IMG/VR virus record: IMGVR_UViG_3300031994_000480 | Location: 1 to 25,751 of that record | DNA: 25,751 bases | Source: a virus | Direction: 5' to 3' (one strand) | Part shown: piece by piece, positions 1,167-25,738 of the stretch | Position numbering within the stretch: position 1 is the first letter of the stretch | Layout: each line of letters starts with the position of its first letter | Program-made: the position numbers and the translations under genes | Notes under the pieces: model-generated | What the model was told of the DNA's origin: nothing | Database searches by the model: none | Seen by the model: only the letters and a program-made list of their open reading frames with translations

Positions 1167-1736
1167 TTAGGAAGCAGAAGCAGCACTCCAAATAGTATCG
1201 ATATCATTATTACTCAAAGTCTCAATAGTGATTTGAGTATCTCCAATGATTTCCCAAGCATTATTAATATAAGCATACTCGGTATAAACATTATTGGTGC
1301 CTGCGGTGCCTTTTGCTACCAAGTAAATAGTAGAAGTAGAAATGTTTGTGGTAGGTAAAGTCTGGACGATTTCAAAACCAAAAGTAGTAATGTTGCCAAT
1401 AGCAGAAGTAATATCACTCATAGTAGCAACCTTATTAGAAGAAGCATTATAAGCGGTATTAAATACTAATTCATCCTGCTTGCCGCTAATGTCTGGGATA
1501 TCTGCCATAGTCGCAACCTTGTTGCTAGTAGCATTATAAGCGGTATTGAAAGCAAGAGCGTCCTGCTTACCGCTGATGTCAGGAATGTCTGCCATAGTTG
1601 CGGCTTTATTAGAAGTAGCATTATATTCAGTATTAAAAGCCAAGGTATCCTGCTTTCCTGCTACGGCTGACTTTACTAATCCACTGTAATAAACTAATTT
1701 ATCACCGGTTAAAACTTTATTATCATAACTTGCCAT
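1167..1736 (-). CDS. Fibre protein with three tandem 29-aa repeats (GKQDxLxFNTxYNAxSNKxATMxDIxxIS)
   Basis: ATG at 1734-1736 follows AAAGGAG. TAA stop, no TAG. The repeats are visible in the translation. Confidence 0.7.
   Translation of the reverse strand: MASYDNKVLTGDKLVYYSGLVKSAVAGKQDTLAFNTEYNATSNKAATMADIPDISGKQDALAFNTAYNATSNKVATMADIPDISGKQDELVFNTAYNASSNKVATMSDITSAIGNITTFGFEIVQTLPTTNISTSTIYLVAKGTAGTNNVYTEYAYINNAWEIIGDTQITIETLSNNDIDTIWSAASAS
1404..1658 (-). repeat. Three tandem ~87-bp coding repeats inside the fibre gene
   Basis: Near-identical nucleotide blocks, e.g. gtagcaaccttattagaagaagcattataagcggtattaaa and gtcgcaaccttgttgctagtagcattataagcggtattgaa. They encode the 29-aa repeat. Confidence 0.8.
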
Positions 1737-2954: not shown

Positions 2955-3731
2955 TTAAGCAACAGTAATCTTTACTAACTTGGTAGCGTCAGTCAAAGCA
3001 ACCAAAGCAACCTTGCGAGCATAGACCTTATTTTCACGAACATTAGCGTCGCGTTCTTGTTCGATTTCAGTGCTCTTCTTTACGAAAAGAGTAATGGCTT
3101 CTTTGGTAGCAAGATAACCAGTATCAGCAGGAACAGCCTTGGATACGATTACAGGAACACCACAAACAGAACCAATATAACCAGTGCGGACAAAGCCTTC
3201 AACATACTTCAAGTCGTCCTTCAAAGCCTTGCGGAAATCAGCCTGGTCGGCAGGAGAGATAAGCAAGAACAAGCCAGTCTCATCTTCAAGGTTCATCTTG
3301 GCAATAGCATCAACAACAGCATCAAAACTCCAAGCGGAAGCAGGAGCAAGAAGAGTTGCTTTATTATATTCAGCAATAGCCTTGGTGGTGAAGTCATTTA
3401 CCATCTGCTTGGCAAGTCCATCGAGACCCACATCGACTACCATAGGGTCAGTCATTTCCTGTTCATCATAATACTTGAAACGACCCTGGGTGGTGCCAAC
3501 CTCATACTCTTCTGGAACGAAACCAACTTCGATGTCTTCACTATTACCTACACCCATAGCAAGGTCTTCAACATTACCGGTAGCGGTATAACGATTAATA
3601 ACCTTCTTCATACCAGCATTTTCGGTAAGAGAATTATCAACAGTCATATAATTAGACAAGTCGATAGCAGTAGTCAAAATATCATTAATTTTATTTTCAA
3701 GAACAAAATTTTCATAAATGGTATGTGGCAT
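2955..3731 (-). CDS. Major capsid protein (small HK97-fold type, 258 aa)
   Basis: Uninterrupted ORF directly after the scaffold gene, with RBS AGGAGTG. Composition and position are typical of a major capsid protein. No TAG. TAA stop. Confidence 0.75.
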   Translation of the reverse strand: MPHTIYENFVLENKINDILTTAIDLSNYMTVDNSLTENAGMKKVINRYTATGNVEDLAMGVGNSEDIEVGFVPEEYEVGTTQGRFKYYDEQEMTDPMVVDVGLDGLAKQMVNDFTTKAIAEYNKATLLAPASAWSFDAVVDAIAKMNLEDETGLFLLISPADQADFRKALKDDLKYVEGFVRTGYIGSVCGVPVIVSKAVPADTGYLATKEAITLFVKKSTEIEQERDANVRENKVYARKVALVALTDATKLVKITVA

Positions 3732-3745
3732 AATTTCTACACTCC

Positions 3746-4324
3746 TTATTGTGTTAATTCTTTATATAATGTGGGATTAGTTCTATATATTTCAGCCTGT
3801 TGTGCGAGGTTCAACTTGCGGAACTGCTCTTTTGTCATCCCGCCCTGTTGTGCGGACCCTGCTTTTGGAGTAGGCTGGGCTATCCTCTTGGCAACCGCGT
3901 CTGCGACTGCCGCCTTAAATGCCTTATCAAAAGCATCAATGTTAGCCATCATAGTTTCCGCATCTTCCGCGACAATATAATCAACAAACTCAACTGGAAG
4001 CCCTCTGTTAGCCATCACTTTCGATGCCTCTAACTTATTTTGAGCGATAGCAAACTCTCGCTCCTTCTGTTCGAGTTCTTCCACTTTCTTATTAAACTCA
4101 TATTCACGGCGTTGATTTTCATCCATCTCACGCAACTTATCGGCTTCTGCCTGTTGCTTATCGAGTTCAGCCTTCTGCTTCTTCAATGCTTGTGAAACTC
4201 TCCGGTCGCCCTCTTGTTGTAGCAACTTTCTAACTTCTTCTTCGGTGTAAGTTTTTGGTTCGTTATTCCCCTCATCAATAGGAGTTGAATTATTTTCCAA
4301 ACCCTTATTTTCTAATTCACTCAT
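3746..4324 (-). CDS. Scaffolding protein (charged coiled coil, DUF4355-like)
   Basis: Start taken at MSELENK (ATG 4322-4324) after AGAGGT. Glu/Lys/Gln-rich helical sequence immediately upstream of the capsid gene. No TAG. TAA stop. Confidence 0.7.
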   Translation of the reverse strand: MSELENKGLENNSTPIDEGNNEPKTYTEEEVRKLLQQEGDRRVSQALKKQKAELDKQQAEADKLREMDENQRREYEFNKKVEELEQKEREFAIAQNKLEASKVMANRGLPVEFVDYIVAEDAETMMANIDAFDKAFKAAVADAVAKRIAQPTPKAGSAQQGGMTKEQFRKLNLAQQAEIYRTNPTLYKELTQ

Positions 4325-4383
4325 AATAATACCTCTCTTGAAAGAGCCCTCAACGGAGTTCTCTCTCATATAATATAATTTTT

Positions 4384-4459: not shown

Positions 4460-4492
4460 ATATATGTAAGATAAAGAAAGGGGAAAAAACTA

Positions 4493-4714
4493 ATGGCAAA
4501 ATACGCAATGTTCTGTATCTGTAATGGGGAATGTCTGTTTTTCTTCACTTATAATTCATTCGACGAAGCAAGAGACGCAATGAAGAAAGAGTATCAGCAA
4601 GCCCTTATCGATGAAGGTTATGACCCCGAAATGGATGAGACTTGTGAAGCAGACGACTTCTGCTGGATACATACTATGGACCACATTGGCTGGTATATTA
4701 AGCCTTTGTTTTAA
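4493..4714 (+). CDS. Small Cys-containing acidic protein, paralog 1 (73 aa), unknown function
   Basis: ATG at 4493, TAA stop, no TAG. Shares MAKYAMFCICNxEC...YNSF...AM.K.YQQAL...WIH..DHI.WYIKPLF with the next gene. Confidence 0.7.
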   Translation: MAKYAMFCICNGECLFFFTYNSFDEARDAMKKEYQQALIDEGYDPEMDETCEADDFCWIHTMDHIGWYIKPLF

Positions 4715-4761
4715 TGCTCTATCCAACCTATTATATAATATATAAGAAAGGAAACAAACTA

Positions 4762-4986
4762 ATGGCAAAGAAATACGCGATGTTTTGTATCTGTAATGAA
4801 GAGTGTCAGTCTTTCAACACTTATAATTCATTCTACGAAGCAGAAGAAGCAATGAGAAAAGCCTACCAACAAGCCCTTGGCGACGAACATTATAATGATT
4901 ATGACGCCGAATGGGATGATGAAGCAGACAAATACTGGATACACAGTGCCGACCACATCCATTGGTATATTAAGCCCCTGTTTTGA
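4762..4986 (+). CDS. Small Cys-containing acidic protein, paralog 2 (74 aa), unknown function
   Basis: ATG at 4762 follows the duplicated ttatataatatata...aagaaagg leader. TGA stop. The ORF-track start at 4714 is an upstream extension. Confidence 0.7.
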   Translation: MAKKYAMFCICNEECQSFNTYNSFYEAEEAMRKAYQQALGDEHYNDYDAEWDDEADKYWIHSADHIHWYIKPLF

Positions 4987-4991
4987 GATTG

Positions 4992-5019
4992 AGACCCAGT
5001 AAATCTGGGTCTTTTTTTT
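4992..5019 (+). terminator. Rho-independent terminator of the plus-strand gene pair
   Basis: Stem agacccag / ctgggtct, loop taaat, then a T8 run. It overlaps the TAA of the convergent minus-strand gene. Confidence 0.8.
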
Positions 5020-5905
5020 ATTCCTCTAAACTTTCTTCCTCTTCCCAAACAACAAAAGAACAAGCACAGTTAGGATGGTATGGCGGCAATTCGATATTTA
5101 TATGTGCGTCCTCTAATCTCACAGGGTCGCCATCCACATAATCCAAACAAATCCCACCACATTCAGCGTCTCCTACGATTTCCACATATTCAACGCCTGC
5201 CTCTAAATAAGTATCTATCAGTGCTTGGTTATAAAAAGCCATCGTCTCGGTCTTTATTAACCGAGCAGTATCATAGGCAGTAGCATTCGTGAGTTCTCGC
5301 CAAGCCCACTTCATCCACTCCATACCCTTGCCATTTGTTAGCCCTTCCCGCAGTATAAAATCTAATTTCTTCTAAAAGTTTGCGGTGTGCTCGTATAAAC
5401 GCTGGCTATAAGTTTTTCCATCGCTACACCAAGGGATAGGAAGCACTTTACTTGTAATATAAGTATCTGTAATTCTTACCTCTGCTTTTGCTTGAAGATG
5501 CGGTGGCTATGTATTATCTTTCCACATAGGGGTTCTTTGAAGAATAATATAAACATCTTTACTCCCTTGCTGATAAGTATTTATAAGACTTTCAGTAATA
5601 ACATTATATGCTATCCACTGTCTTTCAGTCATTCTCCATACTTCACGCATCTACATTTCTTTTATCGCATATTCAACAGCAGGAAACTTACTCAAATCTA
5701 TCTTGCGGATATCCCCTATATAAGGGTCCCGCAAATACTTCTCAATAATGGTTTGGAGTTCTGGTTCTAACTCCTCCCACATTTCATTCATTATCTCATC
5801 AAGTAATTGATACAACTCTGCGGTTTTTTCATAGGCATCAGCCAATACCTATAACACTTGACGCTGAACGCGTTCAGTCTTCGTTAGTTTGCTCTTTCTC
5901 TTCAT
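5018..5905 (-). CDS. Head morphogenesis protein (SPP1 gp7 / Mu F-like)
   Basis: C-terminal ECGGICLDY...ELPPYHPNCACSF motif. Four in-frame TAGs start at 5849, 5651, 5507 and 5372. TAA stop. The ATG at 5903-5905 is uncertain (weak RBS, overlaps the portal end). Confidence 0.7.
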
Positions 5906-7275: not shown

Positions 7276-8517
7276 TTAAAACAATAATTTTTTATCGAGA
7301 GTATTCAACTATACTCGTGCGTCCAAGCACTATAATGAATATCGTAAAGCGTCTAAATAGTGGTTCCATTTGTCAATAGGCTCATTAATATACTCATTAG
7401 TCTGCTTGTCTTTCGTCCAAGAATAATTCTCTAATTCTTCTTTTATATTTACACAAGAGGGGTGAATGATTAACTCATATTGCTACAACTTTTGAATACC
7501 TTGTAATACCGAACCTTTGCCCTTGACGCTCGGCTTGGCATTACGCAAACCCATTTGCCGCAACTCGTCTATACTCTTTTGCTCCGCACTATCACATATA
7601 ATAGTAGATTTTGCGAAACCTAATCCACTTATCGCTTGTGCGATTTGATTATTAAGAAATCCCGTGCCACCCCACTCTTGAAATACATAGATGCGGTTTT
7701 CTGCGGGAACCAAGAGAGAAGCAACAAATGCGGTTGGGTCATTCGTGTATCCAAAGTCGCATCCGCATAATAACTAACCTTTTATACTCTTGGCATCAAA
7801 ATCCATTACTTGCCAATTATTATACACTAATTTTTCAAGAGAGCCAAATTCACCAAGAGCATAAATAGTATAATAAACAGGATTAGTTTCTTTCATACGC
7901 AAGAGTGTATCAATATACGCTTGCGGCAAGAACCTATTATGTAAATAATTCGTCTTAATTATATTAACATTACGCCGCAGTTCCATCATTTCTGGATTAT
8001 CTGCGAAAAACCATAAATAGCACCAATTTGCTTTTGATACTGGGTTGAATGACAGTATTATCTACTGCCCGGACGCATATGGGTCTCTTACACGCAAATC
8101 AACCTGGCTAAAATCATCCGCACAGAACTCTGTCGCTTCTTCCAACCAGGCATCAGTGAGACCTACTATTGACTTTATTTTCTCGGTGTCATCTAAACCG
8201 GAACATAAAAACTAACTTCCATTTGGTAAAGTAATGCTGTAATCCGTTCTATTTACAACACATTTATTAAGTATATTAAAGTTCGTTAAGGTATCCAAGA
8301 GCAACTAGAATGTAGATGCCTTGGTGGTGCGATTTACCTTGCGGAGAACCAGTATCTTGCGGACATCCTTCAATGCTTTAATAACTAACTTCTACGCAAC
8401 AAATACACTTTTTCCTGAACCTGCTCCGCCATAATATACTTCATAGCGTTTAGAGTAGTCCAAGAGATAAGGATAATAAACAGAATTAAATACATTCTTA
8501 TGGATATTAAGTTTCAT
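7276..8517 (-). CDS. terL: Terminase large subunit
   Basis: Walker A YYGGAGSGKS, followed by LEEATE, SFNP, CGCDFGY, FQEWGG and DALRYSL blocks. Eight in-frame TAGs start at 8392, 8305, 8212, 8062, 7774, 7483, 7330 and 7309. TAA stop at 7276-7278. Confidence 0.9.
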
Positions 8518-8911
8518 TTTTATCCCCAACAATAGAGACTTCAATCACATCTTTGGTTTCTACCTTTTGGTTCTGTAAGCCCAGATTTTTACTCAATAGG
8601 CTTAAAGCATTTAGTTTAGCAGAAGTAGTATAAACTTCATCGCCCTTCTGTGCGAATGCTATGCTCGCTAATTCACTATTAACTCTGTATGCGTCGATAC
8701 CCATAGCGTCATAGATTTCCTTTTTACGCATTTCTAGGTATTCTCTTACTTCTGGTTTCTGTAATAGTTTATATGGAGAAGCATTAAGTGTAGATTTATT
8801 AGTGATACCAAAAATATCTCTATAAGCATCCTATGCTTTATATCCATTAGATAGATATAATTCTACAAATGCTTTCCATTTAGTTTCTGGTGTTTTAGGA
8901 TTATAGCCCAT
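8507..8911 (-). CDS. terS: Terminase small subunit (Terminase_2 / P27-like)
   Basis: ATG at 8909-8911. YLSNGYKA[TAG]DAY resembles the NATQAA helix-turn-helix motif. One in-frame TAG at 8831-8833. The TAA stop overlaps the terL start. Confidence 0.7.
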
Positions 8912-11171: not shown

Positions 11172-12191
11172 TTAAGATAATTTATCTAACCTTTCCCGCA
11201 TTTCTTCCAATTCACTCTTGGTTAGTTTATCATTATCAGCCAACTCTCTTGTAATATCGGGAGTGCGTTCTCCTATCTCTAAAATCGTATTTTCTGGTTC
11301 ATATGGAAATCTATGTATAGCAACGATTTTTTCTTTAATTTTTAACTATTTAATTTCGTCTAACACTTGAATAGTATTACCTAATTGGATATTTTCATCA
11401 GGTTCCATTAAAATTACATTATAATGTGTGCTTGGTTTTGATATTCTATTAAGATATGATTTGGCTTTGCTATATAATTTATCTAGTCGTGTTTGAGAAG
11501 TTTTCCAAAACTTACTGATATGTTTTGTGCTATATTTATAATTTTCAAGAAACTTCTATCCCGTAGGATTAACGAGTTCAATAGTAAGTCCATTTTTCCC
11601 AATAGGATATAAAATAGTAGCAAACTCTAATGTATTTTCTACTCCTACTGTTCCAGCAAGTTCGCGGGCAACATATAATTTAGGTATGGTTTTACCATAA
11701 GTATTTTTTATTTCGATAACTTTATTTTTAGTATCAAACCAAAGACACGCAATTTCATCGCTATATAAACTAGGACCTTTTTGTATCATATCCCATAAAC
11801 ACACATTTGCCTCTTGAAGAGTTTCTTTTTCCAATGGATTATACCAAGTAATAGCGGGGTCATCCGTCCAGTGTTTAATCGTCCAAGAGGGAACAAATGA
11901 AACGCAATACTCATAAAACTCTTTACTGGTTTTATTAAACGCATCAAAAACAGGAACCGCACAGCCTTCTAATTCTTCTATATTTGCTTTACAATCAACC
12001 GCAATCATATTATCTTCTGTATATTCAATCATTTTAATTATAAACTCATAATTAGAAGACTAGATATAGCGTTCAAGCCGCAAAGCAGATACATAAGGCT
12101 CCCCGCAAGGAACCTCAAAGTTCATAGATGCCAATCCTGTTTCTAAAACTTCGTGGAGTTGAAGATTTTGTAGATTTTTATCGAGGAGCAT
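11172..12191 (-). CDS. Tail-associated protein N-terminal module (Tal / phage minor structural protein-like, 339 aa)
   Basis: Begins MLLDKNLQNLQLHEVLETGLASMNFEVP and ends with IVAIHRFPYEPENTILEIGE. Three in-frame TAGs start at 12060, 11556 and 11346. TAA stop. Confidence 0.55.
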
Positions 12192-12219
12192 AACAAAATT
12201 ATGCTCCTCATCAAACAAC

Positions 12220-12573
12220 TTAAACATATCGCAAATCAAATCTGGCTTCTATGTTAAACAAAGAAGCAGAAGTTAAAGTAATATCATTTGTGCCAGGAAG
12301 CAAACGCGGCAACTCCACACCCGCATATTTTCCCCATTTTAATTCATTATTTATTTTAAATTCTCCGTTTTCGCCATCAATAACTATTACATCATAGGCG
12401 TCAATATGCCCTGTAATTTCAATAGGATGAATGGTTAAACCAGTAATAGTTATGCCATTTAATGCTGCTTTTGGAATTAAAGTTAAGCAGCAAGGAGTGG
12501 GTGCGGTTCCAGCATTAATAATGCTGAAACCGGTGCCCTCCTCATTCACGATAATAGGATAATACTTTTCCAT
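12220..12573 (-). CDS. Dit C-terminal (galectin-like) domain encoded as a separate 117-aa protein
   Basis: Pattern IINAGTAPTPCCLTL...DVIVIDGENGEFKINN...LPRLLPGTNDITL matches the C-terminal half of siphovirus distal tail proteins. Own RBS (AAGGAGA) and ATG. No TAG. Confidence 0.55.
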   Translation of the reverse strand: MEKYYPIIVNEEGTGFSIINAGTAPTPCCLTLIPKAALNGITITGLTIHPIEITGHIDAYDVIVIDGENGEFKINNELKWGKYAGVELPRLLPGTNDITLTSASLFNIEARFDLRYV

Positions 12574-12585
12574 AATTGCGTCTCC

Positions 12586-15500
12586 TTATTCAACTAATGA
12601 TAAATTGCTATCTTCGTAATAAACCCAGCCTAATGAGGTGCGAAGCCAGTTTGTATCTCTCTTGGTTTTTTCTGTAATATATACTCGGTCTCCTGCTAAA
12701 TAACGACCTAATTTGTAAGTATCATTTTCGTCTTTGATAGGATATTCATAATAATTAATGCTATCATTTGCGACAACATAAAGTTGATTTACTGGTATTC
12801 TGTCAATATAAGTGTCATCGCGGCAAATCCAACAGTCTAAATTATCCAAAAGATAATAGTATTTATCGTCATTACTAAAATATGCTTCTGCGATAACTCT
12901 TACAACTTCTTTTTTATGAGTGCTATTCGAAAATGAGTATAAATCACGCGTCATTTTAGGAGAGATATCATTATTAGTAGATGGAATAATAGCAGTAATA
13001 AATGGAGTAAATCCATTATTTAAGGTTCGTAATACAATATCAGTGCGTGAAGGAGTAAATGCTTTTATACCAGTAGCATCAGTAGGATTTGAAGCATTTA
13101 CATCTAATTTTACTTTATACCATTTTTTATCGATGGAACACCATTGGTCGGTTGTGTATGTCGCTGCGTTATCTCTACTTACATAAGCATATCTTTCTGC
13201 GGGAACAACCATTCCAGAAGGTATTGCTACTTGTGCTCTTGCTATTTCGTTTGGATAATTATAAGTCCAAACTTTCGCAGATGTTTTATAGAATGTATAA
13301 GGTGGAGTAGTTGGAATAGTATGGTCGATTGGATTGGGTTTATCATCATAATAATTATAATCGTGCTCCATTGGATTTTCATTAATAGTATTACGATAAC
13401 TTCTCTTATATACTTTTCCATATTGTCTATCTGGGTCTGCCGCACGCGTATAGCCTCTACCGTCCTAGGCATATGGATTAATAATATCAAAAAATCCATC
13501 TTTTAATACTTGGAAGAAAGGTGCTGTTGAAAGGTTCATATTTTGCCATAAACAACCCGCATAATTAGGCACATAATATGCTAATAGATTATTATTGCGG
13601 TCATAAAATTTAATTCCGTGATATATACCTCTTGTAAGGCACAATCTTGTATAGCCATCAGCATTTTCACCAGATGGAGAGTAGTCAGGAATTTTTAAAT
13701 CATAAAAATCGCGTTCTGTGCTATTAATTACTCGTGGTGCGTAGGCTTTATCTGTATCCATAAGATATTTTGGTAATCTAGAATTATCATAAGGTATTTT
13801 TGCTACTGTGCGAGGATAAGGTGAGAAAGGAGACCTATAAAATCTATAAAAGGCTTTATCTTCTCGTTTAAAAATGCCCCATAATCCGTTTTCTTTTCGA
13901 GTATTATATATATTTTGAACTTGCTGGATAGCGGCTAGGTTGTTAATCGACATTAGATATTCTATATCATCATCTAAATAATGAGAAGCAACACGAGCGA
14001 CATTATACAGCGATGAATTGTTTCTATGAGCAGAATAATAGAATTTTGCATCGTTCCACTGCCGCCAAAAATAAAAACCAGCCCCATCAATTGGAATATA
14101 ATTACTGTTAGAATTATGAGTATAAGCAGTAAGTCCATTAGAACTAAAATAATTCTAATACGAATTCGCTTTATCAGTTATAAAAGGCTCTTCTAATTCA
14201 AATACTACGCCCTCAATTTTATCATAACCAGTTGGAGGATAAAAGATAGAACCTTCATCTACGGATTTAATTGGATAAGCATAGTATTTATACTCTCTTG
14301 GAGGCTGGAAAGGATAAAGCACTTTTTGTGTTCCTGTTCTTACTAATTCTTCAAAAGTAAAATAAATATGCTCGTCGTCCCAAGGATGCGGGTTCCATAA
14401 GAAAATTCCATCATTATACTTATGATTAGAATTAAATAGATTTTTACCTACACCAAAAAAGTCCCAATCTAAACTAACTGGTGCGGCACGATAAAGTTCT
14501 GGAAGAATTTCTTCTCCTTGGTCGTTAGTCTGCCAACTTGTCTCTATAAAATGGTCCCAATCAGGGTTCCAATCTCCAATAGAGCAAGACAACATAGCAG
14601 AGCCTAATTTATAATGTTCATCTATGGCAGGAGAATAATAATGGATATTATAATGATATATAGTTTCAGGATAAACAATATCTAATTCGTGTAAATCACT
14701 GATATCATTATAAGTAATAGTGCCATTATAATTAACAGTCGCAGGTTCGTGATATCTTAATTTCTTTTTTTGTATATCAACTACATCTTGAAGAACATAA
14801 ACATCATTCCAATCAACTTCATCCAAATGAATAACATCTAGTCCAATAGCGTTATATAATTTACCACTTTGATTAAGACTTAATTCTTCAACCTTAACCC
14901 AACAATCATAGTTCGAAGCATAAGCCCACAATCTATCAACAGTGAGTTTAGTAATGGTAAGATTAGCACCAAATGGAATTGTTGTATCTAATTCAGTATT
15001 TGGGTCATAATCAGGATTTTGTCCTGGACCTTGGATGCGGTCAATAGCAGAAAGTAAAATCCAACCGTGATAATACTCTTTTAATCTGCCCCATCCATTA
15101 CGCTCTTCCATAATCGTAATTACTTCATCCTTATGAACGAAATAAGCCAATGCCCTATATCTGCGGGCAGGTCCATAATGGATACCCACATATGGATTAT
15201 TTATACGGGCTTGATAAGGTAAGAAGTAATCAGTTGGCTCATCTTCATAATACGCTTGATGATAGTGATTTTGATATTTAGTTGTGCCTGTTGGATTTAA
15301 TACTTTTGCGGTTAAATTACAGTCGAGATAATTTGGGTCTATATTCAAAGTAATAGTATTATCTTCACTTGCTCCACCACGATAATACTCCGCATAGAAT
15401 AAATCAGGACGCTCTAATTTAGTATATTTATCATATACAACCACAGGAGCAGGAGCATCAAGGAACGCCGCCATATCATTATTTGCTAATAAAGTATCAT

Positions 15501-18500
15501 TAAAGATTAATCTACCATTTGTAAAATCGTCGGTTTTATAATAATCTATTTCAATCGGCAAATCTGTAATACTATTGGCTTGTTCTATATCGTGTAAATT
15601 AAAGAACAAATCTTTTGAACCTATTCTCATATTATCATTATAATAAACGACGCTCTTTGAGAAAGAACGATAACGATAATAGATATTAATAAGACCTTGT
15701 TCGTAAATATCTTTTAACTAAAATTGGTCGTAAGGATTATCTGGGTCATCTGTATCAATTAAACCATTTAAATAATAATCATTTGGTTTAAAATCATCAC
15801 AATGAAGTTGTTCTGCGAATGTAGAAGCATTTGGGTCATACCATACAGGAACAGCAACACTTTGCTGTGCGATAAGATTATTTTGTTCGTCATAATAATT
15901 CGCACCAACATTACCAAAATAGCAAGGGTCGTCCATAACCATTAATGGAATAACATCTTTGGCAGGGATAGTTATTTTTTCTTCTACCATAGAAGTTTCT
16001 AATACATCGCCCTACTGAATAATACCATTTGGCATTATAGCACCATCTTTTAAATGAGTTTCAGCAATGGTTCCAATATATGTTCCACCCTCATTACAGT
16101 TAGTGAAGAAGATTTCTGTAACCAAATCAAATAAACCATTTTCTGGCATAATTTGTCCGGCAATTTCTTCTCCTTTTGCGACAGGCACTAAATCACGGAC
16201 TAATTTATCTTGGTCCCATATTTTAATACCCCAAACCATACACATTGTAGGCTCTGGTTCAGCAGGGGCTCTCCAACTAGCAAAACCAACATACATTGAT
16301 GTTGAATGGCTATATTTAACACTTTGAGTATTTTTTCCTGACATAGGAATAACTTTGCCATCTGGTGTTGTATAGTATTGAGTATCTTCTGTTGTGCCTA
16401 AATTTTCTAACATAATTTCGGTTTCTATCGTTCGCTAAACATCATAAGCATAATAAGGATTTAAAAAGTTTTGACGCAGTGCGGATGGAACTCCATACAT
16501 AGTAGATAGTGCCCCAGAAACATTTGGATAAGCCAGATGACAGAATGGATTTTGATTAATTATTCCGCTATCTGGATTACGAGTAGCAAATAGAGTTAAA
16601 GAACCTCTTGGATGGCATCTTACTTCAAAACTATCTTTATCATCGTTGTTAGAAAAATCATAATAGCCATATCCATTACCGCTACCAAAATCATACGCCG
16701 TGCTATATTTTCTATAAGCACTTAAAGTATGAGTAATAGGAACAGCAACATCGAATTGATTAAAGCCATTATCAAGAGCGTGCTATGATAATTTCATTTT
16801 AGACCCGTGGTCTATATCATTAAAGAAACTACTCTGGCTCATTCTTTCTCCAATAGAAGCATTATATTGAACCTCATAATTACTATTTTCTTTAACGATA
16901 TTATAATTTTCGTCCATTGAAGTAGATGCTCCATTACGGTAGGTCGCACAACTACTATTCCATTTAGTTATTCCGCGATTAACATCAACAACTACTCCTA
17001 CCAAAGAGCCATCTTTTGTATCACGATAAGTAGTGCTGTATTTTTCTCCTTCCCAAGTCGCTGGTGTATATTCATTATATACAACAGGCATTCTAACAAT
17101 AGGAACACGACCGCGGAATGCGAATGTGCCAGTGCCATATTTACCTATGGTTTTTTCATCATCGCCTAATATGAAATTATTAAGTCGATAAGATGTATCA
17201 CCTAAATCCCCAAGAATTTCAACTGGGAAAGCCGCAGCATAACCGAATATACCCATATAGTCCAAAGTCTAATCAGTATAATAGTTTTGACGGTCATATA
17301 AAGGAGTTACTGATTTAGAAACATATTTCATCTCAACGGTCAAACGACTTAATTCTTTTGGAGTATATCCTAAATCTATATATGGAATACGCCCACCCGT
17401 TTTAATAAATAGAAAATGGTCATATTGATTTCCTGCCGAGTGAGTATAGTTCCTATTATTAGGACCAAATCTAGCATCCCAAAATAAGACCTTATTTAAT
17501 CTATTTAAAGGAATAGCGTCTGGTCCGCCAGGTTCAATAATAGTATCATAAACAATATCAATACCTGCTTCAACTAATTCTTCAAAAGTATAAAGTCTAT
17601 TAGTATTTTGTAATACGCCATAATCGCACTTAACAGGTTTAAATAAATTGACATATCTATTAGGCAACTAATCAACTAAATAAAATGGTCCATCAAAATC
17701 ATCTATTTTAACCGACCAAGTTGTAGTCGCAACCTAATTTAAAATATCTACATCATCTGTGTAATAACGAATTTCAATTTGTTCTGTTGTTGGCAAATAA
17801 CAAATAATATATTCGTTTTTTAGTTTAGAAGGACTATAAAGATGTTCGTCCATTTTATACCACTGATAACTTTCACCAGAGCGATAATACTTTTCTGGTT
17901 TAAAAGCATCCCAGTCAATATAATAATCAATAAATTCACCTTCACGGAAATCGCTCGCACCCAAGGTAAGAGTTATATTACCAAGCGTTTCATAAGTATG
18001 AAAACCAAATACTTTCTTAATATATTTGATATTAGTAGTATAAGTTGGTTCTTCTCCTTCAATAGGAGTATAAACAATATCATAAGGTGCGTGTGCGATT
18101 ACTCTTCCCAAGGTAACTTTTGGCTCTGGAAATACATAATTAGTTTCATAGCCTTCTGGTTTATACTTATTCAATCTAATCAATTCACCAAACATAGGGA
18201 CTTGATAGAAGTCTTTTTCAGTAAAAACCAAACTCTCTGTTGCTAACAAGTTTGCCGGGTCATTAGTATCTTTATAATAACGAACTTGTATTACATTTTC
18301 TTGCTCTTCATATACAACATTAAATACAAAGTTCTTTAAGTTTTCAAAATTAATTTCACCTAAATCAGTTAAATTAACGATTTGTCCTGGATTATAATAA
18401 AGTGGCTGATGTTCGGTTATTTCTAATTTCGCATCTAAATCCCATTCTTCTTCAAATTCATCACCACGATAGAAAATCTAACGAGTTTCAAAGATATAAT

Positions 18501-21423
18501 CGCCTTTATAATAATTTACATAGAATGAGCCAATTTGCTGAACTGGGTCTGTAATAGGATAACTATCATCATCACGGATATTAAAACTATTTTGACCGGT
18601 AGCATCTTCAAAGAAAGACTGACTTACTTTATCATACAAGCAATTACTAGGAGCAACTTGCGAACCGATTTTATCATAATACTGAACCGGGATAAGGTCT
18701 CTTACCACTTCTCCATCATATTCAATAATACAATTATAAATCTCAATTCCTGCTAAACCGCCAGTATAAACGCCAGCATTATTATTCGCAAATAAATAAA
18801 GTGGGAATGGCATCCGTGCGTGGTCTGTTGCTACTCTATTAGAGTAGTTGAAAACAGCAACAGAATAACCGTCCGCACTAGGATTACTATAAATACCAGA
18901 ATTAGGACCCCATCCAATCGCATTACTTTCTGTTAATACAAGAGGAGCACTATGCTGACCCGCCCTAGCCTCATAAGTATTTACGCCACTTAAATTAGTG
19001 CCATACATTGTTTGGTTGTTAAATCTCATAAAGTATTCACCAAAAGAAGAAGAACTACCAAACAAATAAGCATAACCGGCATTTACTTGGCTCATTGGTG
19101 TATATTCATCAACTAATCCGCACTTTATCTTAACAGTTAATTTACTCATATCTTCACAAGTAAAGCCTGTGTTAATATAAGCGTGCGGGAAATGCCAATT
19201 TGGATGCTGTCCTTCATATCCGCCTAAATCATTATGCTGTAAGAATAACACTCTGTGAGGATATTCAATATCACCTGGTTCATCAGGCTCACTTACAGTA
19301 TCATAAACAACATCAATACTAGTAAGTTCGCGTAATGCGGTGAAATTAACTGGACCGCGATACTGGACGATACCGTCTGCCGCGAATACATTCTTATACT
19401 GATTAATTTTTAGTCCTAAATCAATAAGAGTAGTGTCCGCGGAAAAATCAATAACACGATAATTAATAGTATCACTGCCAACCCAGTTTCTAACATCGAC
19501 ATCATCTGTATAATAATTTATAACAGTGTAATAAGTAGAAGCATAATATAATACGCTATAACTGGTTGCCAAAGTTTCAAAAGTAATTACCTGGCTATCA
19601 CTTACTCCATCCAAAATACCAGTTTCATAGTATTCTGGCTTATGTGCGTTTAGGTCAATGATATCTTTAAGCCGTGCTCCGCCAATCAATTCATTCTCGC
19701 TAACAGTAATAATCGCTGTGCTAATAGTTGAAAAAGCACTTGCTAACTGTTGCTTATAACGAATAATAATATCTTTCGTGCGAGTAGTCTAGATTTCAGT
19801 ATAAATAATATAAATAGGCTGTGCGTAAGTTAAAGCATCTAATGATACTTCGCCTTTATAACTCGCCTCTGGGTCAAATTGATATCCAGTAGGTTTATGT
19901 CCTGTAATATCAACAATATCTCCTAACAAAGGCTGATTATAGAACTGCGTGATATTTATATTAATAGTTTCTTCGGTGTATAAATTACTGTCATCTTTCT
20001 TATAGCGAACAGTAAGAGGATATTCAATAGGCACATAATAAACCTATAAAGCACCCGCTTCAATTACACTATCAAAAGTATGATATAAACCAGCATTATA
20101 CAAAACACCGTTTTGATAATTACCAGTAAGATATTTATCAAGGTCTATCCCGATATTTTCTAAACTGAAATCTTCTTCATAACTTGAATTATATTTCAAA
20201 AGGATAGGAGATGTAGCAAGACGATACCAATTAGGATAAGTGCCCGCATAGTATTCTATATACACTACATATTCTATTCTACGATAATCAATGTAATAAG
20301 ATGTTTCAAGTTCATCGTAATTAACGAAGTCAGTGCGGTTATGACTATCTATGTAGCCAGGGTGATAATACTCTGGGGTTGGACGCCAAGCGTCAAAATT
20401 AAAAATGTCTTCAAATGTTGTTCCTTCAACGATACGAGTTTCAGGGACAGATACCAAAACACTTTCAATAATGTCATATTCTCCATTATCGTTTTCATTA
20501 CGATAAGTTAAAGTGATATTTTTAATTCGGTCATCATCGATATGAGTATATTGGACGAAAATAGGACTTGCCGCAAGCAAGTTTTCAACAATCAAACCTT
20601 GATTATATAAAATCTTCGCACTATATCCTTCTGGACGATAATTATTTACTTTAATTAATTCACCAACAGAACGCATCGCTTGGATTTGCGGATAAGTGAA
20701 AGGAATAGTTTCTTGAAGGCTCTGTTGATAGCCACTGCCACTATCAATAATATAACGAACTTCAACGCTATACTGAATGGGCTCATAATTAATGATAAGA
20801 ACGCCAAGAGACTGTAAGTTATCATAGGTTAATTCCATCAAGCCTAAATTAGAAGCAACACCAGATTTATAATGTTCGTCCTTAAACTTATCAACATCAA
20901 TACCAATAGATGATAAAGTTGGAGTTTCTTGCTCGCTAAATGAAACAGAACGGATAAGAACTGTATCCTGTCCTACGAAAATGTTGCCGTTTTGATAATA
21001 TACTACATTTAAGCGGAAAGTGCTAGTCGCACCAATATCAGTTGTATATACTTCTCTATCTAATGAACGAGCATATCCGCTAGCCAAATCATATGTAATT
21101 AAAAAATTGCCATTCTTTAAGCGAGAAGGCTTATTAGTCCCATTAAATACAACATCAAATTGAAAATCTAAATCATCAAATTTAATAGTTGCTTTCTTTA
21201 ACATTTGGGTTAATTGGCTCATTTTTAGGAATGCCTCTTGTTCGTCTGGTTCGAGAACCAAAAATGTCAAAGTCATTTTCTTAAAAGTGTCCTATGAACG
21301 AACATAATATGGCTCTAAACTTCCATCCGCCCATTCATTAACCGCTTTCACTGTATTGGAGGTAAGTATTCTGTCATATAACTTTATATTTAATGAAGTT
21401 ATATCAATTCCATTAATAAGCAT
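12586..21423 (-). CDS. Giant tail protein (2,945 aa): Dit N-terminal domain, ~10 beta-rich ~80-aa repeats, three lectin-like modules and SH3b-like segments
   Basis: ATG at 21421-21423 follows GGAGG. Ten ORF-track pieces plus the gaps between them (all checked codon by codon) share one frame. Thirteen in-frame TAGs start at 21292, 20044, 19789, 18478, 17734, 17668, 17269, 16783, 16435, 16012, 15718, 14155 and 13465. No TAA or TGA occurs until TAA 12586-12588. Confidence 0.8.
17734..21050 (-). repeat. Protein-level array of ~75-85-aa repeats (..V.YY.DD....(K/R)PEGY..), MucBP-like by pattern
   Basis: Recurring strings RYYTDDVDILN, NYYTDDVDVRN, VRYYKDTND, NYRPEGYSA, NKYKPEGYE, GHKPTGYQ, AHKPEYYE, WRPTPEYY and FKPEKYY. 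The copies are too divergent to be DNA repeats. Confidence 0.5.
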
Positions 21424-21435
21424 TTATTAACCTCC

Positions 21436-22002
21436 TTATCTATAATTAAATACCGCATATATGTCTTGTAAAGAGTTATAATGCTACATTACACCCTTAT
21501 AATATAATTTACTTTGCTTGTTTTCGATATCAAAAATCTATCTCTATAATTGAAGAGATTTTTCTAACGCTTCATATTCCTTGCGTCTGGCTTTTTCAAT
21601 AGCAGTCTATTTAGCGAGTATCCGCTCTCCTATTCTTTTGGTTTGCGGCTCTGCTTGTAAATAACGCAAATCTTGTTCTAACTTTTCAACTCGTTTGCGT
21701 GCCGCAGGCTCTACATTATTAATCTATTTTTTTAATGACTGTCTATATCTTCTGCTTTGAGAATTATAACTTTTTGCGTCTTTTAAGTTATCGCTAATAG
21801 ATTTACGCATATTGTTGCGTAAGTTCTTTAAATTTTCTGCGTCCTATTTTTTGAAACGCTCACGATAACCCCAATCTATTTCTTCATTCGCACCTTTATT
21901 TTCTCGATAGTATTTTTTTAAAAAACTATTATCTTTTTTATCTTGCCATTGAGATGTTATAATGCTAAATCTTCTTTCTACGGCGTCAAGAATATCACTC
22001 AT
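21436..22002 (-). CDS. Basic coiled-coil protein (188 aa) in the tape-measure position
   Basis: The ATG overlaps the chaperone stop (ATGAGTGA). Seven in-frame TAGs start at 21844, 21724, 21607, 21544, 21538 and 21484 region (six listed here plus hand translation total of seven). TAA stop at 21436-21438, followed by GGAGG and the Dit start. Confidence 0.5.
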
Positions 22003-22495
22003 TTAACAGCACCTCACATACTGACTAACGCTCTACCATATTTCCAACAGCGAACTCATCAGGTTCTGTTAAAGATATTGGAGAAGTATTGTCCTATAAA
22101 CTCTCTAATACTGCTATTTTTATTATATTTGCTAATGTCTCTTGGCGTTTTTGATACCCTTTATATGCTAATTCTATTTCACCAGGAGACATCTATAAAG
22201 CAATGTTAGGGTCTATACCAATCTCACCAACGGCTTGACTATATAGACCCTGAAAATCAATAGAGAAAAAGGAGACCTATTCAACTAATGAAGGAATGAA
22301 ACGCTTAAACAGTCCTTTTGAGTATAACTCTTTCGCCGCGGTAGGACTTAAATGATTTTCATCAAAAGTAATCAAACCTGCGGCGAAAAAATCACTCTCA
22401 TCATACTATGATAAAGACTGTAAATATATTATCCCACGCAGTCCAATTTTGAACCAGTAATCTTTACCGTCAATAGTAATCAATTGTTTATTCAT
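21995..22495 (-). CDS. Tail assembly chaperone (positional call, 166 aa)
   Basis: The ATG overlaps the major tail gene stop (ATGAATAA). Five in-frame TAGs start at 22406, 22277, 22193, 22094 and 22025. TGA stop at 21995-21997. Confidence 0.5.
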
Positions 22496-22886
22496 TAATA
22501 ACACTCAATTCTCCATTACCTAATAACTTTGCTTTGTATTTATAGGTATCATTATATGCCGCGACCAAAGGGAACTCTGTAAATAATGCTTGTCCCTTAT
22601 ATTTTTTGTTATCTAATTCTACTTCTACTGCGACATCTTGATTATTCCTAAACGCTTGCTATAAAGTATTATATGCCGCACTATCTTTTACATATAATCC
22701 ATCGCAACTAATAGACCAAGATTTTACGCCGCCCAAATACTCTTTCCAAACCGCATCTATTTTGTTCGTGATATCAATAGATGCTGCTGACTGTATCAAG
22801 GTTGCGTTAAGTTGTCCCGCCAGTTTCTCTCCCGCAATAATTATAGATACTTTTATACCCTTTTGGGTGTTATTCACCATCTTCAT
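22488..22886 (-). CDS. Major tail protein (TP901-1 / phi13-type)
   Basis: GEKLAGQLNATL..SAASIDITNK...WKEYLGGVKSWSISCDGLY pattern. ATG at 22884-22886 follows GGGGGA. One in-frame TAG at 22659-22661. TAA stop. Confidence 0.7.
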
Positions 22887-23271
22887 CGGCAAGTCCCCCT
22901 GTTATGATAAAAGTAAAGTTAGCAACACCGTGTTTGCGGAGAGGTCCTGTCTCATTATCGTCAAGAATTTGAAGCCTATTAAGATAACAATAAGTGATAT
23001 TATTATTTTCAATAAACTGTGGCAAAGATTTAATAATCTCATCGACGATTTCAATAATTTCTTGCTCGCCACTATATCTAGTAAAGATATCAAGAGTGTA
23101 AGTAATGTTTGACATTACCAAATCCCTTGCGTGCCGTGCGGTCAAATTATGAAGACGCAACTTCAAAAAAGGAAAATCATTTTCATCGTGATAAGCACCA
23201 GTATCATATACAGTTTTACCTGTTATCTCTTGTATATGAGAACGAAAGGCTTCTTTAATATCTTTCAACAT
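22870..23271 (-). CDS. Tail completion / terminator protein (DUF3168-like)
   Basis: VYDTGAYHDENDFPFLKL pattern and position directly upstream of the major tail gene. No TAG. Confidence 0.5.
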   Translation of the reverse strand: MLKDIKEAFRSHIQEITGKTVYDTGAYHDENDFPFLKLRLHNLTARHARDLVMSNITYTLDIFTRYSGEQEIIEIVDEIIKSLPQFIENNNITYCYLNRLQILDDNETGPLRKHGVANFTFIITGGLADEDGE

Positions 23272-23467: not shown

Positions 23468-24217
23468 TTAAATAATTTCTAAATCATATGATGCTACAAA
23501 AGAGATAAGTTCATCATCTAATAGTTCAAGTTCGCCTTCGCCCCAACTATCATAATCGCCAGAAAAAATCTCTTCAAAAATAGAAAAAATGGCTTCAATT
23601 AATGCTATGACAACCGCACAAATTAAATCGGCTATTAAACTTGACTATTCGGTTTGTTCGATATGATGATTTCTATTTTCTTCAACTTCATCTATTCTCT
23701 CTAAAATCTCATTTCTTTCAGCCTCTAACTATTCCATCTCATCTTCGTCTTCACAATCCGCAGCCTACGCTTCAACATCAGCCAACTATTCATATAAGTC
23801 TTGTAGTTCCTAATCGGCTTCTTCTGCCATCCCATCATTTTCTTCAAAGTCTGCTACTGGTTCGATTAATTCTGCTTCTGCTTCTTCTTCTTGGCTTTCA
23901 GCAACAATATCGCAACAAGCATTTGCTAAATCGTCTAAATACATTTCAATAGCAGGTTCAAAATAAGGTTGTGCTTCCATCTTATATGTCCCGTATTCCA
24001 CATACTAGGCATACTCACAACTAACTGGGATGGAGCAATAGGTCTATGACACTATCGCTCCATCACCTATTGTGCTTCGTAGATAACCAGTGCGGACAGG
24101 ACAGTTTGCTTGTGCGTCGTTAATTACCGCATCAACAAAATCTTGGAGAGGCTTACTATAATCAAGGTCATCAGGCAAGCCCCAATCGGCGACATCTACT
24201 TCACACAAAAGACCCAT
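23468..24217 (-). CDS. HK97 gp10-like neck protein with a long acidic C-terminal extension and one hydrophobic helix
   Basis: ANCPVRTGYLRSTI ... CEYA[TAG]YVEYGTYKMEAQPYFEPAI. Seven in-frame TAGs start at 24044, 24005, 23810, 23786, 23765, 23729 and 23645. TAA stop at 23468-23470. Confidence 0.7.
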
Positions 24218-24436: not shown

Positions 24437-25738
24437 TTAAGCAATACTTACAGTCCAACCTTTTGCTGTTGCGACTGCTATTTCGGCAGCGGTAAGGTCA
24501 TCAATTCCGCCTTCATCAGTGGAATTACCTGACCCGGCTTTAAACGCAATAGTATTACCATTATTCTCAACAGCAGAAGTATCAGGTAATGTATTAATAG
24601 TTTCAACCGCACTTGTATGATTATATCTACTATATGCTAATGATTTGCTCCACCAATTAGGATTATTTTTCATTTGATTATAAGTAGTAGCATCTACCAC
24701 AGGCTCATTTTCACCAGTTCCTTCTTTAAGTGCGGCTAATTCATAACCTGTATTACCACTATAATAACCTACTCCATTACTACGCAAATCTAAATACTAT
24801 TTTTTCCAATAGGCAGTATAAGGTTGATTATTTGTGTCTAACTAAAAAGTAAAACGCGATAATCTATGTGCGGCATTTACACAATTACTAAACTAATCAC
24901 TAGTAAAAATAGTAGTAGCATTAGTAGAATGATGAGAAATAGGCACATTTAAAATCGCAGGAACGCAAAATGCCTAATATGCTAATGACGAATATGGATA
25001 CTGATATATGCTTGATGTTCCTGCGTCTTCATAAGACAAAAAACTAAAATCTATCGATTTATTTAAGCGAATACAATTACTATATATTGATGTTAAAGAA
25101 AATGTCCCTGAACTATTAATAATAGATGTATTAGAAAAATCAAATAGTTCTTGTAAATAATAACACTCATTAGCCAAGCCATTAAAATCAGTATTAATTG
25201 TGCCTGTTATATGAGGTGGTTTTATACAATTTTCGCAACCTTTTATTAACGATGCTACTGAACTACCCCTTGTAGAAGAGCAATTAATAGTTATATTAGA
25301 CAAATCTGTTATTTGAGTTGAATTCACAAACATATAACTTGCCAAAGTAATACTATTAAACTACATTTTATCGCCATACTGATTTAATACCCAAGACCAC
25401 TTATTTGAACTAAATAAGTTCTACACATTTCCGGTGAAAGTCAAATCTGCTGTTGTAGGAGTATAGCCTCCTCCTACTTCTAAATTACCAATTTCAGTAG
25501 CGAAATACTCTGGACTAATACCAGGACTACCAACAGTAGAACTAATAAAAGTATCTCCAAACACATCTACATCGCTTTTGACTGTTGCTGTTCCATACTT
25601 TTTAATTCTTATGGCATCCGCGGTATCTACTAAAATACTTCTTGGCACAATTACATTATCATTATAATCGCCTTTATCTTGATGATATTCCGCACTTGAA
25701 GCCCAAGTTGTTAATTCATTTCCACTGCTACCAGCCAT
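24437..25738 (-). CDS. BspA-type leucine-rich-repeat protein (433 aa), probable adhesin / receptor-binding protein
   Basis: Repeated F.N/GC..L..I.F patterns (LIKGCENCIKP, FNGLANECYYLQEL, IYSNCIRLNKSIDF, FSNCVNAAHRL). Six in-frame TAGs start at 25421, 25361, 24974, 24893, 24842 and 24797. Three ORF-track pieces share one frame. TAA stop. Confidence 0.6.

Follow-up and report, generated by a model that had tools for sequence, protein, structure and literature searches.

The subject of this report is a gene of 2,945 codons in a small viral genome, IMG/VR record IMGVR_UViG_3300031994_000480, of which we analysed positions 1 to 25,751 (hereafter the window; 25,751 nucleotides, 35% G+C). The gene lies on the minus strand from 21423 to 12586, contains 13 in-frame TAG codons, and accounts for 34.5% of a genome that closes, through a 127-nt overlap of the assembled ends, into a circle of 25,624 bp. 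In the explanation that fits best, and which we hold with considerable confidence, it is a single gene with TAG read as glutamine (Gln), carried by a small, gut-type siphovirus resembling the TAG-recoded Topaz phages, and it encodes the ring subunit of a split distal tail protein (Dit) whose enormous extensions would serve as wall-binding adhesion arms. Recoding itself is ordinary for such phages; the split 339-kDa Dit-anchored adhesin and the near absence of a tape measure protein (TMP) are the interesting parts.

The giant open reading frame (ORF) begins with an ATG, which an in-frame TAA immediately precedes and a strong AAGGAGG Shine-Dalgarno motif lies 8 nt upstream of, and it ends after 2,945 sense codons with a TAA; on the plus strand the two ends of 12586-21423 accordingly read TTA...CAT. 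Within it there is no TAA and no TGA, whereas stops number 173 and 436 in the two alternative frames of that strand along these 8.8 kb; since about 165 TAA and TGA codons would be expected in 2,945 random codons at this base composition, the probability of observing none is about 2e-72. The TAG codons are codons 44 (21292-21294), 460 (20044-20046), 545 (19789-19791), 982 (18478-18480), 1230 (17734-17736), 1252 (17668-17670), 1385 (17269-17271), 1547 (16783-16785), 1663 (16435-16437), 1804 (16012-16014), 1902 (15718-15720), 2423 (14155-14157), and 2653 (13465-13467), all on the minus strand. Under the standard code they would break the frame into 11 fragments of at least 60 amino acids, each 81-491 amino acids long; read through, the protein has a mass of 339 kDa, a pI of 4.7, and 9.1% tyrosine. 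A preliminary description of the window had given the coordinates exactly, as well as the 13 TAGs, the lack of TAA and TGA, the 2,945 codons, and a share of about one third of the genome, all of which our retranslation and calculation reproduce; it left the minus strand unstated, and its ten fragments in a single frame differ trivially from our 11.

Comparison with related phages shows what the TAGs mean. Among 5.8 billion proteins searched, more than 120 are collinear homologues, 2,830-3,030 amino acids long, 41-49% identical to the window protein and encoded on contigs of about 22-27 kb, and their database entries already translate TAG as Gln. The protein is widespread in metagenomes. DNA could be obtained for 16 related loci. 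The giant gene has no TAG at all in four of them (complete in L004, L008, and L012, at 2,844-2,953 codons, and partial in a fourth), and 2-33 TAGs, mostly at differing positions, in the others; the maximum of 33 is found in L006, and L001 shares only 1 of its 18 TAG positions with the window. The three complete TAG-free genes belong to genomes that use the standard code throughout, with a coding coverage of 0.87-0.90 under either code (ORFs of at least 100 amino acids). In a codon-level alignment, the codons opposite TAG in other genomes are CAA (276), CAG (173), and TAG (168), and the substitution spectrum of TAG has a log-likelihood of -3459 for Gln against -4342 for lysine, the next best residue. 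Window TAGs 44, 460, and 1385 occupy invariant or nearly invariant Gln columns: codon 44 is CAA or CAG in 10 relatives and TAG in 5, codon 460 is CAA or CAG in 15 of 16, and codon 1385 in 10 of 11; codon 1252 is TAG in 7 relatives as well. Because TAG positions vary among genomes and align with CAA and CAG, TAG means Gln; pyrrolysine or any other residue at TAG was considered and is rejected by the same alignment.

The rest of the window agrees. It contains 74 in-frame TAGs in 17 of its 25 called genes (8 in TerL, 3 each in the portal and Tal genes), every one of the 25 terminates in TAA or TGA and none in TAG, and coding coverage rises from 0.50 under code 11 to 0.90 under code 15. We conclude from these comparisons that the 8.8-kb frame is one gene with TAG decoded as Gln (code 15), as the preliminary description had proposed; it had also called for homologues in recoded and non-recoded phages, and both exist, with the gene uninterrupted in the standard-code members.

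What the gene encodes is less obvious from its sequence, and scans of the whole protein against Pfam and PHROGs gave nothing useful; signals for a Dit N-terminal domain and for SH3 domains emerged only when pieces were scanned separately. When residues 1-140 are scanned alone, residues 2-137 match positions 39-183 of the Dit family phrog_33 (E 4.6e-6), and immediately downstream of the giant gene a separate 117-codon ORF without TAG (12220-12573, minus strand) matches positions 177-277 of the same profile, so that the two ORFs are consecutive halves of one Dit profile. This second ORF also covers residues 2-97 of the 97 in PF22768 ('Siphovirus-type tail component, C-terminal domain', E 8e-6), the galectin-type Dit C-terminal domain. 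A profile of the N-terminal domain, searched against 1.84 billion cluster representatives, retrieved the giants, a class of about 600-1,050 amino acids, and many proteins of about 230 amino acids. The last group consists of canonical Dits, in which the profile matches residues 1 to about 137 with E values of 1e-7 to 1e-24 and residues from about 138 to 240 are PF22768; one of them also matches PF05709 (Sipho_tail).

Structural comparison points the same way. AlphaFold2 models were built from exact fragments of a homologue, P0002, and compared with the window protein region by region. The model of P0002 residues 1-963 (mean pLDDT 79.8), which includes an N-terminal domain 57% identical to that of the window, was matched by Foldseek to the Dit of TP901-1 (4v96), to a monocin tip, and to several 'distal tail protein' entries in BFVD, with a Foldseek probability of 1.00 over about 150 columns; the sequence profile of the domain found no match among PDB sequences. 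Taken together, the profile and model evidence indicates that the giant is the N-terminal half of a split and hugely extended Dit, in which residues 1-136 (21016-21423, minus strand) correspond to the ring or belt domain.

The split itself is conserved. The Dit C-terminal ORF has its own AAGGAG Shine-Dalgarno motif and starts 12 nt after the giant TAA, and in all 11 relatives with a complete gene the giant ends in TAA or TGA and is followed, after a spacer of at most 20 nt, by a separate ORF of 115-122 amino acids; wherever such a spacer exists it contains a Shine-Dalgarno motif, and in L001 the two ORFs overlap by 4 nt. The frame offset between the two ORFs is 0, 1, or 2 depending on the relative, and hence neither read-through nor simple frameshifting joins them. 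In neither the window nor these 11 relatives is the Dit C-terminal domain on the same polypeptide as the ring domain. The preliminary description was thus right in recognising a Dit N-terminal domain but missed that its C-terminal partner sits in the next ORF. In the window the giant TAA and the ATG of the downstream ORF (12573-12588) happen to share a frame, 4 codons apart, a coincidence to judge from the relatives; continuous translation through this TAA was considered as a way of joining the two halves, and is rejected by the variable offsets and the Shine-Dalgarno motifs in the spacers.

Beyond the ring domain, the remaining 2,800 or so residues resolve into modules, which are given here from the N-terminus with coordinates on the minus strand: i) seven tandem beta-grasp modules resembling MucBP and InlB B-repeats, each about 78 residues (residues 137-708, 19300-21015; jackhmmer and Foldseek); ii) domain A, a conserved lectin-type jellyroll similar to LamG domains and carbohydrate-binding modules (CBMs), with the motif PLYLFANNN...VVRDLIPV (residues 715-965, 18529-19281; Foldseek); iii) four further beta-grasp modules (residues 966-1293, 17545-18528; repeat map); iv) domain B (residues 1300-1835, 15919-17526), with a hypervariable core at about residues 1300-1700; v) two beta-grasp modules (residues 1839-1998, 15430-15909; repeat map); vi) a conserved SH3b-like region (residues 2000-2183, 14875-15426; SH3_16, phrog_1794, and Foldseek); vii) two more beta-grasp modules, the second weak and carrying an insertion (residues 2184-2371, 14311-14874; repeat map); and viii) a hypervariable C-terminal region ending in tandem SH3-like or GW-like beta domains (residues 2375-2945, 12589-14301; conservation profile and Foldseek).

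An iterative hidden Markov model search (jackhmmer) finds at least 15 copies of the 78-residue module in the giant. In the P0002 model, whose repeats are 55% identical to those of the window, the top structural neighbours of the repeats are the ubiquitin-like (Ubl) array of USP7 and ISG15, so that by their modelled structure these modules are beta-grasp folds in tandem arrays. For domain A, the most conserved part of the giant and 68% identical to the modelled homologue, the candidate neighbours are NanC (4yz2; 189 columns, root-mean-square deviation 7.0) and a LamG-like jellyroll in BFVD (174 columns, root-mean-square deviation 5.7); Foldseek does not report the matched query residues, and for that reason we infer, rather than read directly, that the jellyroll matches belong to domain A. 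Domain B carries the same C-terminal motif as domain A (KLVRDLVPV), and is a candidate for a second, hypervariable lectin-type jellyroll.

The SH3b-like region has two weak matches, one to Pfam SH3_16 (E 5e-5) and one to the C-terminal portion of the phrog_1794 amidase (E 3.7e-5), and PF08239 (SH3_3) is precomputed for several homologues. The model of P0002 residues 1778-2871, with a pLDDT of about 90 over its last 300 residues, was matched by Foldseek to the GW/SH3-like array of InlB (1m9s, E 1.8e-6, 347 columns), and also to the lipoteichoic acid (LTA)-binding domain of SlpA, the SH3b domains of lysostaphin and ALE-1, and endolysin cell-wall-binding domains; the window protein is 28% identical to this modelled region (E 3e-40), and a phmmer search of its SH3-like region and C-terminus against the PDB found no match. 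Across 120 homologues the framework of the giant retains 40-70% identity to the window, whereas residues 1300-1700 and 2380-2900 are hypervariable, and we regard residues 2375-2945 as a candidate receptor-binding end on the basis of this pattern and of the modelled folds. The "repeats and lectin-like modules" of the preliminary description thus take shape as beta-grasp repeats, LamG/CBM-type jellyrolls, and SH3b/GW-like domains.

Smaller versions of the giant, about 600-1,050 amino acids long, occur in standard-code relatives (L018; P0191, P0193, P0197, and P0210). Those that join the Dit N-terminal domain to InlB B-repeats measure 680-1,054 amino acids and keep the synteny of the giant. Three of the four intermediate-length relatives that were scanned (P0191, P0197, and P0210) combine the Dit N-terminal domain with PF18998, the 'Divergent InlB B-repeat'. 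The example in L018 (Logan SRR27686864, 4668-7163) is a protein of 831 amino acids, encoded in the standard code and in the same synteny as the giant, with the Dit N-terminal domain, a lectin-like domain whose '...DYVPI' motif it shares with the giant, and three Pfam InlB B-repeats. To judge from these architectures, such proteins are plausible evolutionary precursors of the giant.

How such a protein might work can be pictured from known baseplates. In solved structures, the ring that Dits build between tail tube and Tal trimer is a hexamer, and their peripheral C-terminal domains often carry adhesion modules, as passages of PMC7291167 describe. By this homology the giant, whose translation runs from the ATG at 21423 through 13 TAGs read as glutamine to the TAA at 12586-12588, would contribute residues 1-136 to a Dit ring lying below the tail tube and above the Tal trimer; six copies would form the ring, the separately made 117-residue C-terminal domain would dock on it, and each ring subunit would continue into an arm of about 2,800 residues where the Dit C-terminal domain usually stands. 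Each arm would be long and flexible and would consist of beta-grasp spacers in blocks of 7, 4, 2, and 2, separating two lectin-type jellyrolls, the SH3b-like region, and the C-terminal SH3-like/GW-like array. The whole would be a multivalent, long-reach device of about 2 MDa for the saccharide, teichoic acid, or peptidoglycan surface of a Gram-positive host, with the two hypervariable regions setting host specificity. Saccharide binding is predicted from similarity at the level of the fold to LamG/CBM jellyrolls and SH3b/GW domains, and six Dit-anchored arms binding the wall of a Gram-positive host is the function that sequence and models make most likely. The host is probably a member of the Clostridia; the best annotated matches of TerL are to Clostridium siphophages (48-51% identity). 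A very large adhesion device relative to genome size, as the preliminary description had put it, is what the domain content and size of the protein suggest.

Several observations weigh against this interpretation, and should be kept in mind: i) ARAGORN detected no tRNA gene, suppressor or otherwise, either in the window or in 15 related loci, and Infernal with Rfam found no tRNA or ribozyme in the window at E<=1, so that efficient reading of the 13 TAGs is assumed and not explained; ii) in the window's own sequence, neither the repeats nor the jellyrolls are recognised by Pfam or PHROGs; iii) the folds were read from AlphaFold models of a homologue whose identity, 55-68% along the greater part of its length, falls to 20-29% in the last 570 residues, the models span P0002 residues 1-963 and 1778-2871 with domain B falling outside them, and the structural matches are tied to individual domains by aligned length and by the nature of the target; and iv) 185,579 species-representative genomes, searched with a profile of the giant and then with that of the Dit N-terminal domain, yielded no relative, for which reason we make no host assignment.

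The first of these points bears on how TAG is read, and on the best placed of the alternatives. The TAG-decoding agent is not recognisably encoded by these phages, as far as their sequences tell; according to passages of Borges et al. and PMC9610469, a suppressor tRNA is detectable in only 13-40% of the genomes in which TAG is recoded; we do not take it as strictly defining. TAG might instead be a leaky stop, such that translation would yield mostly nested N-terminal fragments, beginning with one of 43 residues, and only traces of the full-length giant, the density of TAG attenuating expression and setting stoichiometry. This would suit the lack of a dedicated suppressor and the small number of giants that a virion would need (only about 6), and it would suit the usage of TAG across genes. 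In the window, TAG is rarer among the Gln codons of the giant (13 of 99) than among those of the other genes (61 of 216; p = 0.004). The same genes were compared in the window (major capsid protein, MCP, 2955-3731; scaffold, 3746-4369; TerL, 7276-8544; MuF, 5018-5905) and in L001-L016: in the recoded genomes the scaffold gene uses TAG for about 3 of some 146 Gln-type codons and the MCP gene, encoding with it the highest-copy proteins, is also almost free of TAG, whereas in the TerL, MuF, and chaperone-like genes TAG makes up about 30-45% of Gln codons. TAG use thus appears, from these codon counts, to be inversely related to protein copy number. Leaky termination nevertheless runs into a quantitative difficulty, in that the yield across 13 TAGs is e^13, where e is the read-through at each: 0.01% at 50% read-through and 25% at 90%, and L006 has 33 TAGs. 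Decoding must therefore be efficient anyway; moreover, TerL is essential and has 8-14 TAGs, and TAG occupies Gln positions that do not vary and nowhere serves as a terminator. We consider leaky termination unlikely, and retain routine decoding of TAG as Gln. A dependence of TAG use on copy number is not what the simple model in which late genes are recoded would predict. Among genomes, the share of TAG in Gln codons is about 0.01-0.03 in the standard-code L004, L008, and L012, 0.09-0.13 in L002, L005, L009, and L014, and 0.23-0.36 in the window, L001, L006, L010, L013, L015, and L016.

A second alternative accepts the arms but not their target: rather than binding the bacterial host, or in addition to it, they might tether the virion to animal mucus or immunoglobulin, in the manner of 'bacteriophage adherence to mucus'. 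It is suggested by the bacterial and phage neighbours of the modelled repeats, which include the MucBP-bearing lectin YwfG, the Ruminococcus gnavus immunoglobulin-binding protein IbpA, and a phage 'MucBP domain-containing protein' in BFVD. The beta-grasp modules are, however, the conserved spacers of the giant and not its variable parts, and neither PF06458 (MucBP) nor PF18998 (Flg_new_2) matches the window protein at E<=1, whole or in pieces. The giant is furthermore anchored in a baseplate ring beside Tal, and its distal domains resemble SH3b/GW and LTA-binding domains that target the cell wall. A tether of this kind has, in our estimate, only an outside chance next to attachment to a Gram-positive wall.

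The third alternative arises from gene order. Upstream of the giant on the coding strand are genes for Neck1, the tail terminator, the major tail (tube) protein (22488-22892; phrog_1407, E 2e-28, and PF06199 in L017), a conserved chaperone-like protein of 169 residues (21995-22504, 5 TAGs), and a protein of 188 residues rich in lysine, arginine, glutamate, and glutamine (21436-22002, 6 TAGs); downstream, after the 117-residue Dit C-terminal ORF, comes the 355-residue Tal (Prophage_tail) protein (11172-12239, 3 TAGs; PF06605, E 5.7e-15, and PHROG tail proteins), all on the minus strand. In the usual triad of TMP, Dit, and Tal, the slot of the TMP is the one taken here by the short ORF between the chaperone-like gene and the giant, which encodes 188 residues in the window and only 51-80 in relatives (compared upstream of the giant genes in L001, L003, L006, L008, L009, L010, and L012, and at 4487-4663 in L018); there is no TMP of normal size. 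In the relatives the short ORF has a conserved C-terminal '...GL(A/E)xxR(E/Q)GG' motif and abuts the start codon of the giant. The giant could accordingly be taken for the missing TMP, or for a fusion of TMP and Dit, given its place in the order major tail protein, chaperone-like ORF, short ORF, giant, Dit C-terminal domain, Tal. But it is beta-rich and modular and not extended and alpha-helical, it starts directly with the Dit ring domain, and its hypervariable lectin and SH3b-type domains are typical of exposed adhesins. On fold and homology we reject the identification with a TMP as very improbable, and keep that with a split Dit. From the lack of a TMP of normal size one would predict that the tail tube is very short or that tail length is set by some unconventional means.

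Two remaining alternatives would deny that the protein exists. If the TAGs were real terminators, the region would be a string of small genes or a decayed pseudogene, and indeed the genome has no amber suppressor tRNA and standard-code gene callers such as that of JGI list only fragments of 132-491 amino acids. Against this stand the single frame free of TAA and TGA over 8.8 kb, with its probability of about 2e-72; the uninterrupted gene in standard-code relatives; the alignment of shifting TAG positions with CAA and CAG; the TAGs within essential genes (8 in TerL, 3 in portal), together with the lack of any gene that ends in TAG; and the want of restart signals, since at 12 of the 13 TAGs no Shine-Dalgarno motif lies between the TAG and the next start codon, which is up to 95 codons away, while motifs of the AAGGAG type precede most real genes of the window. 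Termination at the TAGs is scarcely credible in the face of a gene read through as Gln. The exact 2,945-residue translation with Gln at TAG is in fact already present, unnamed, in ENA-derived collections, and the preliminary description overlooked that code-15-aware pipelines call the gene at full length. An assembly artefact, by repeat-driven collapse or chimerism, might be feared in a protein so repetitive at the domain level, but we give it almost no chance and regard misassembly as excluded as far as sequence data allow, because the protein-level repeats have diverged in DNA so that the gene has no long direct repeats (the best is 53 nt at 79% identity), because an ENA MEGAHIT contig (25,765 = 25,624 + 141) with a different terminal overlap (141 nt, against 127 nt in the window) is 100% identical to the window over the 20.4 kb compared, and because hundreds of independent assemblies yield collinear giant proteins of equal length.

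Set beside known systems, the giant resembles evolved Dits: both have a tail-tip Dit ring domain, its gene placed right before that of Tal, fitted with modules for adhesion or carbohydrate binding in addition to or instead of a classical receptor-binding protein. In the evolved Dits described in passages of PMC7291167, however, one or two CBMs are inserted in loops of the galectin C-terminal domain. The giant has no such insertion: about 2,800 residues of modules follow directly after the ring domain, then a stop, and the galectin-type domain is a separate, unadorned protein of 117 residues. With the classical Dits (SPP1 gp19.1, TP901-1 ORF46, and p2 ORF15; PF05709 and PF22768) it shares the homology of the N-terminal domain, a PF22768 domain at the locus, and a place upstream of Tal, but the two domains are on two polypeptides, and that with the N-terminal domain is about 20 times longer. 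Its architecture is a different and far larger solution than that of the known evolved Dits. The modules share, by Foldseek, the folds of Gram-positive adhesins (MucBP proteins such as YwfG; InlB B-repeats or Flg_new_2, PF18998; and the GW/SH3b domains of InlB, lysostaphin, and endolysin cell-wall-binding domains), but are fused to a phage baseplate ring domain, and the repeats of the giant itself fall below Pfam detection. Searches of 50,697 GenBank phage records with megablast and tblastn found no match to the giant, and a comparable protein is mentioned neither in passages on recoded phages (Borges et al.; PMC9610469) nor in passages of the literature on evolved Dits.

That gut phages may recode TAG to Gln is already well documented (Borges et al.; Peters et al., PMC9523058), and the preliminary description overlooked that TAG-recoded phages of about 22 kb had already been described. 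As passages of Borges et al. (bioRxiv 10.1101/2021.08.26.457843) relate, the Topaz clade comprises TAG-recoded phages of 22 +/- 3 kb that are temperate in Oscillospiraceae, their integrase is free of in-frame TAG, and standard and recoded codes mix within clades; these passages make no mention of a giant tail gene. The window shares with Topaz the reassignment of TAG to Gln, a small genome (25,624 bp, at the upper edge), genes nearly all on one strand with TAG throughout, the affinity of its terminase to those of Firmicutes phages, and the company of both standard-code and recoded members. Its relatives are presumably temperate, L001 having an integrase free of in-frame TAG up to its C-terminal end; the window differs in having no integrase. 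We call it Topaz-like on the strength of these resemblances.

In an abundant, uncultured phage family, standard-code annotation thus conceals the dominant gene, which carries the idea of the evolved Dit very far: it takes up a third of the genome, its ring protein is split, and it has at least 15 spacers and swappable lectin and SH3b-type heads. For structural virologists this would be a new type of adhesion device, and for ecologists a host-range determinant of Topaz-like phages. The same gene of some 2,900 codons, with 0-33 TAGs and no suppressor tRNA, also provides a compact natural series on the onset of TAG reassignment and the source of the decoding machinery. We wish to add a broader and frankly speculative picture, possible in our view but doubtful: that a small phage family with a TMP slot of only 51-188 residues has all but abandoned a tail defined by a tape measure; that its adsorption apparatus is a crown of six arms of about 340 kDa on split Dit ring subunits, an architecture without a solved or described counterpart; and that TAG is decoded by a factor which the phages do not encode themselves but borrow from the host or a co-resident element, with the density of TAG tuned inversely to copy number.

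Some further features of the window deserve mention. No endolysin or holin was recognised anywhere in the genome. The Neck1-like protein (23468-24217, minus strand; 249 residues) is very acidic in its middle part and hydrophobic in a C-terminal segment, and this segment gives a weak match to the holin family phrog_689 (E 1e-4). The integrase of L001 (742-1851) has TAG only at codons 324, 354, and 363 of 370; as these are confined to a C-terminal extension, the standard code would end the protein at codon 324, and under code 15 it gains a tail of 46 residues, so that its C-terminus depends on the code. In the window the place of this integrase is occupied by a 272-nt tandem duplication (4463-4986, plus strand) containing two ORFs (4493-4714 and 4714-4986), the only genes called on the plus strand, which encode small acidic paralogues of 73 and 90 residues that share the motif MAKYAMFCICN...WYIKPLF and have no PHROG match. 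Finally, the ORF at 1167-1736 (minus strand), whose neighbours of 345 residues (114-1151) and 433 residues (24437-25738) match no family, encodes a TAG-free, fibre-like protein of 189 residues and contains three tandem 87-nt repeats (1411-1671) that are 69-76% identical and specify the 29-residue unit GKQDxLAFNTxYNATSNKxATMADIPDIS.

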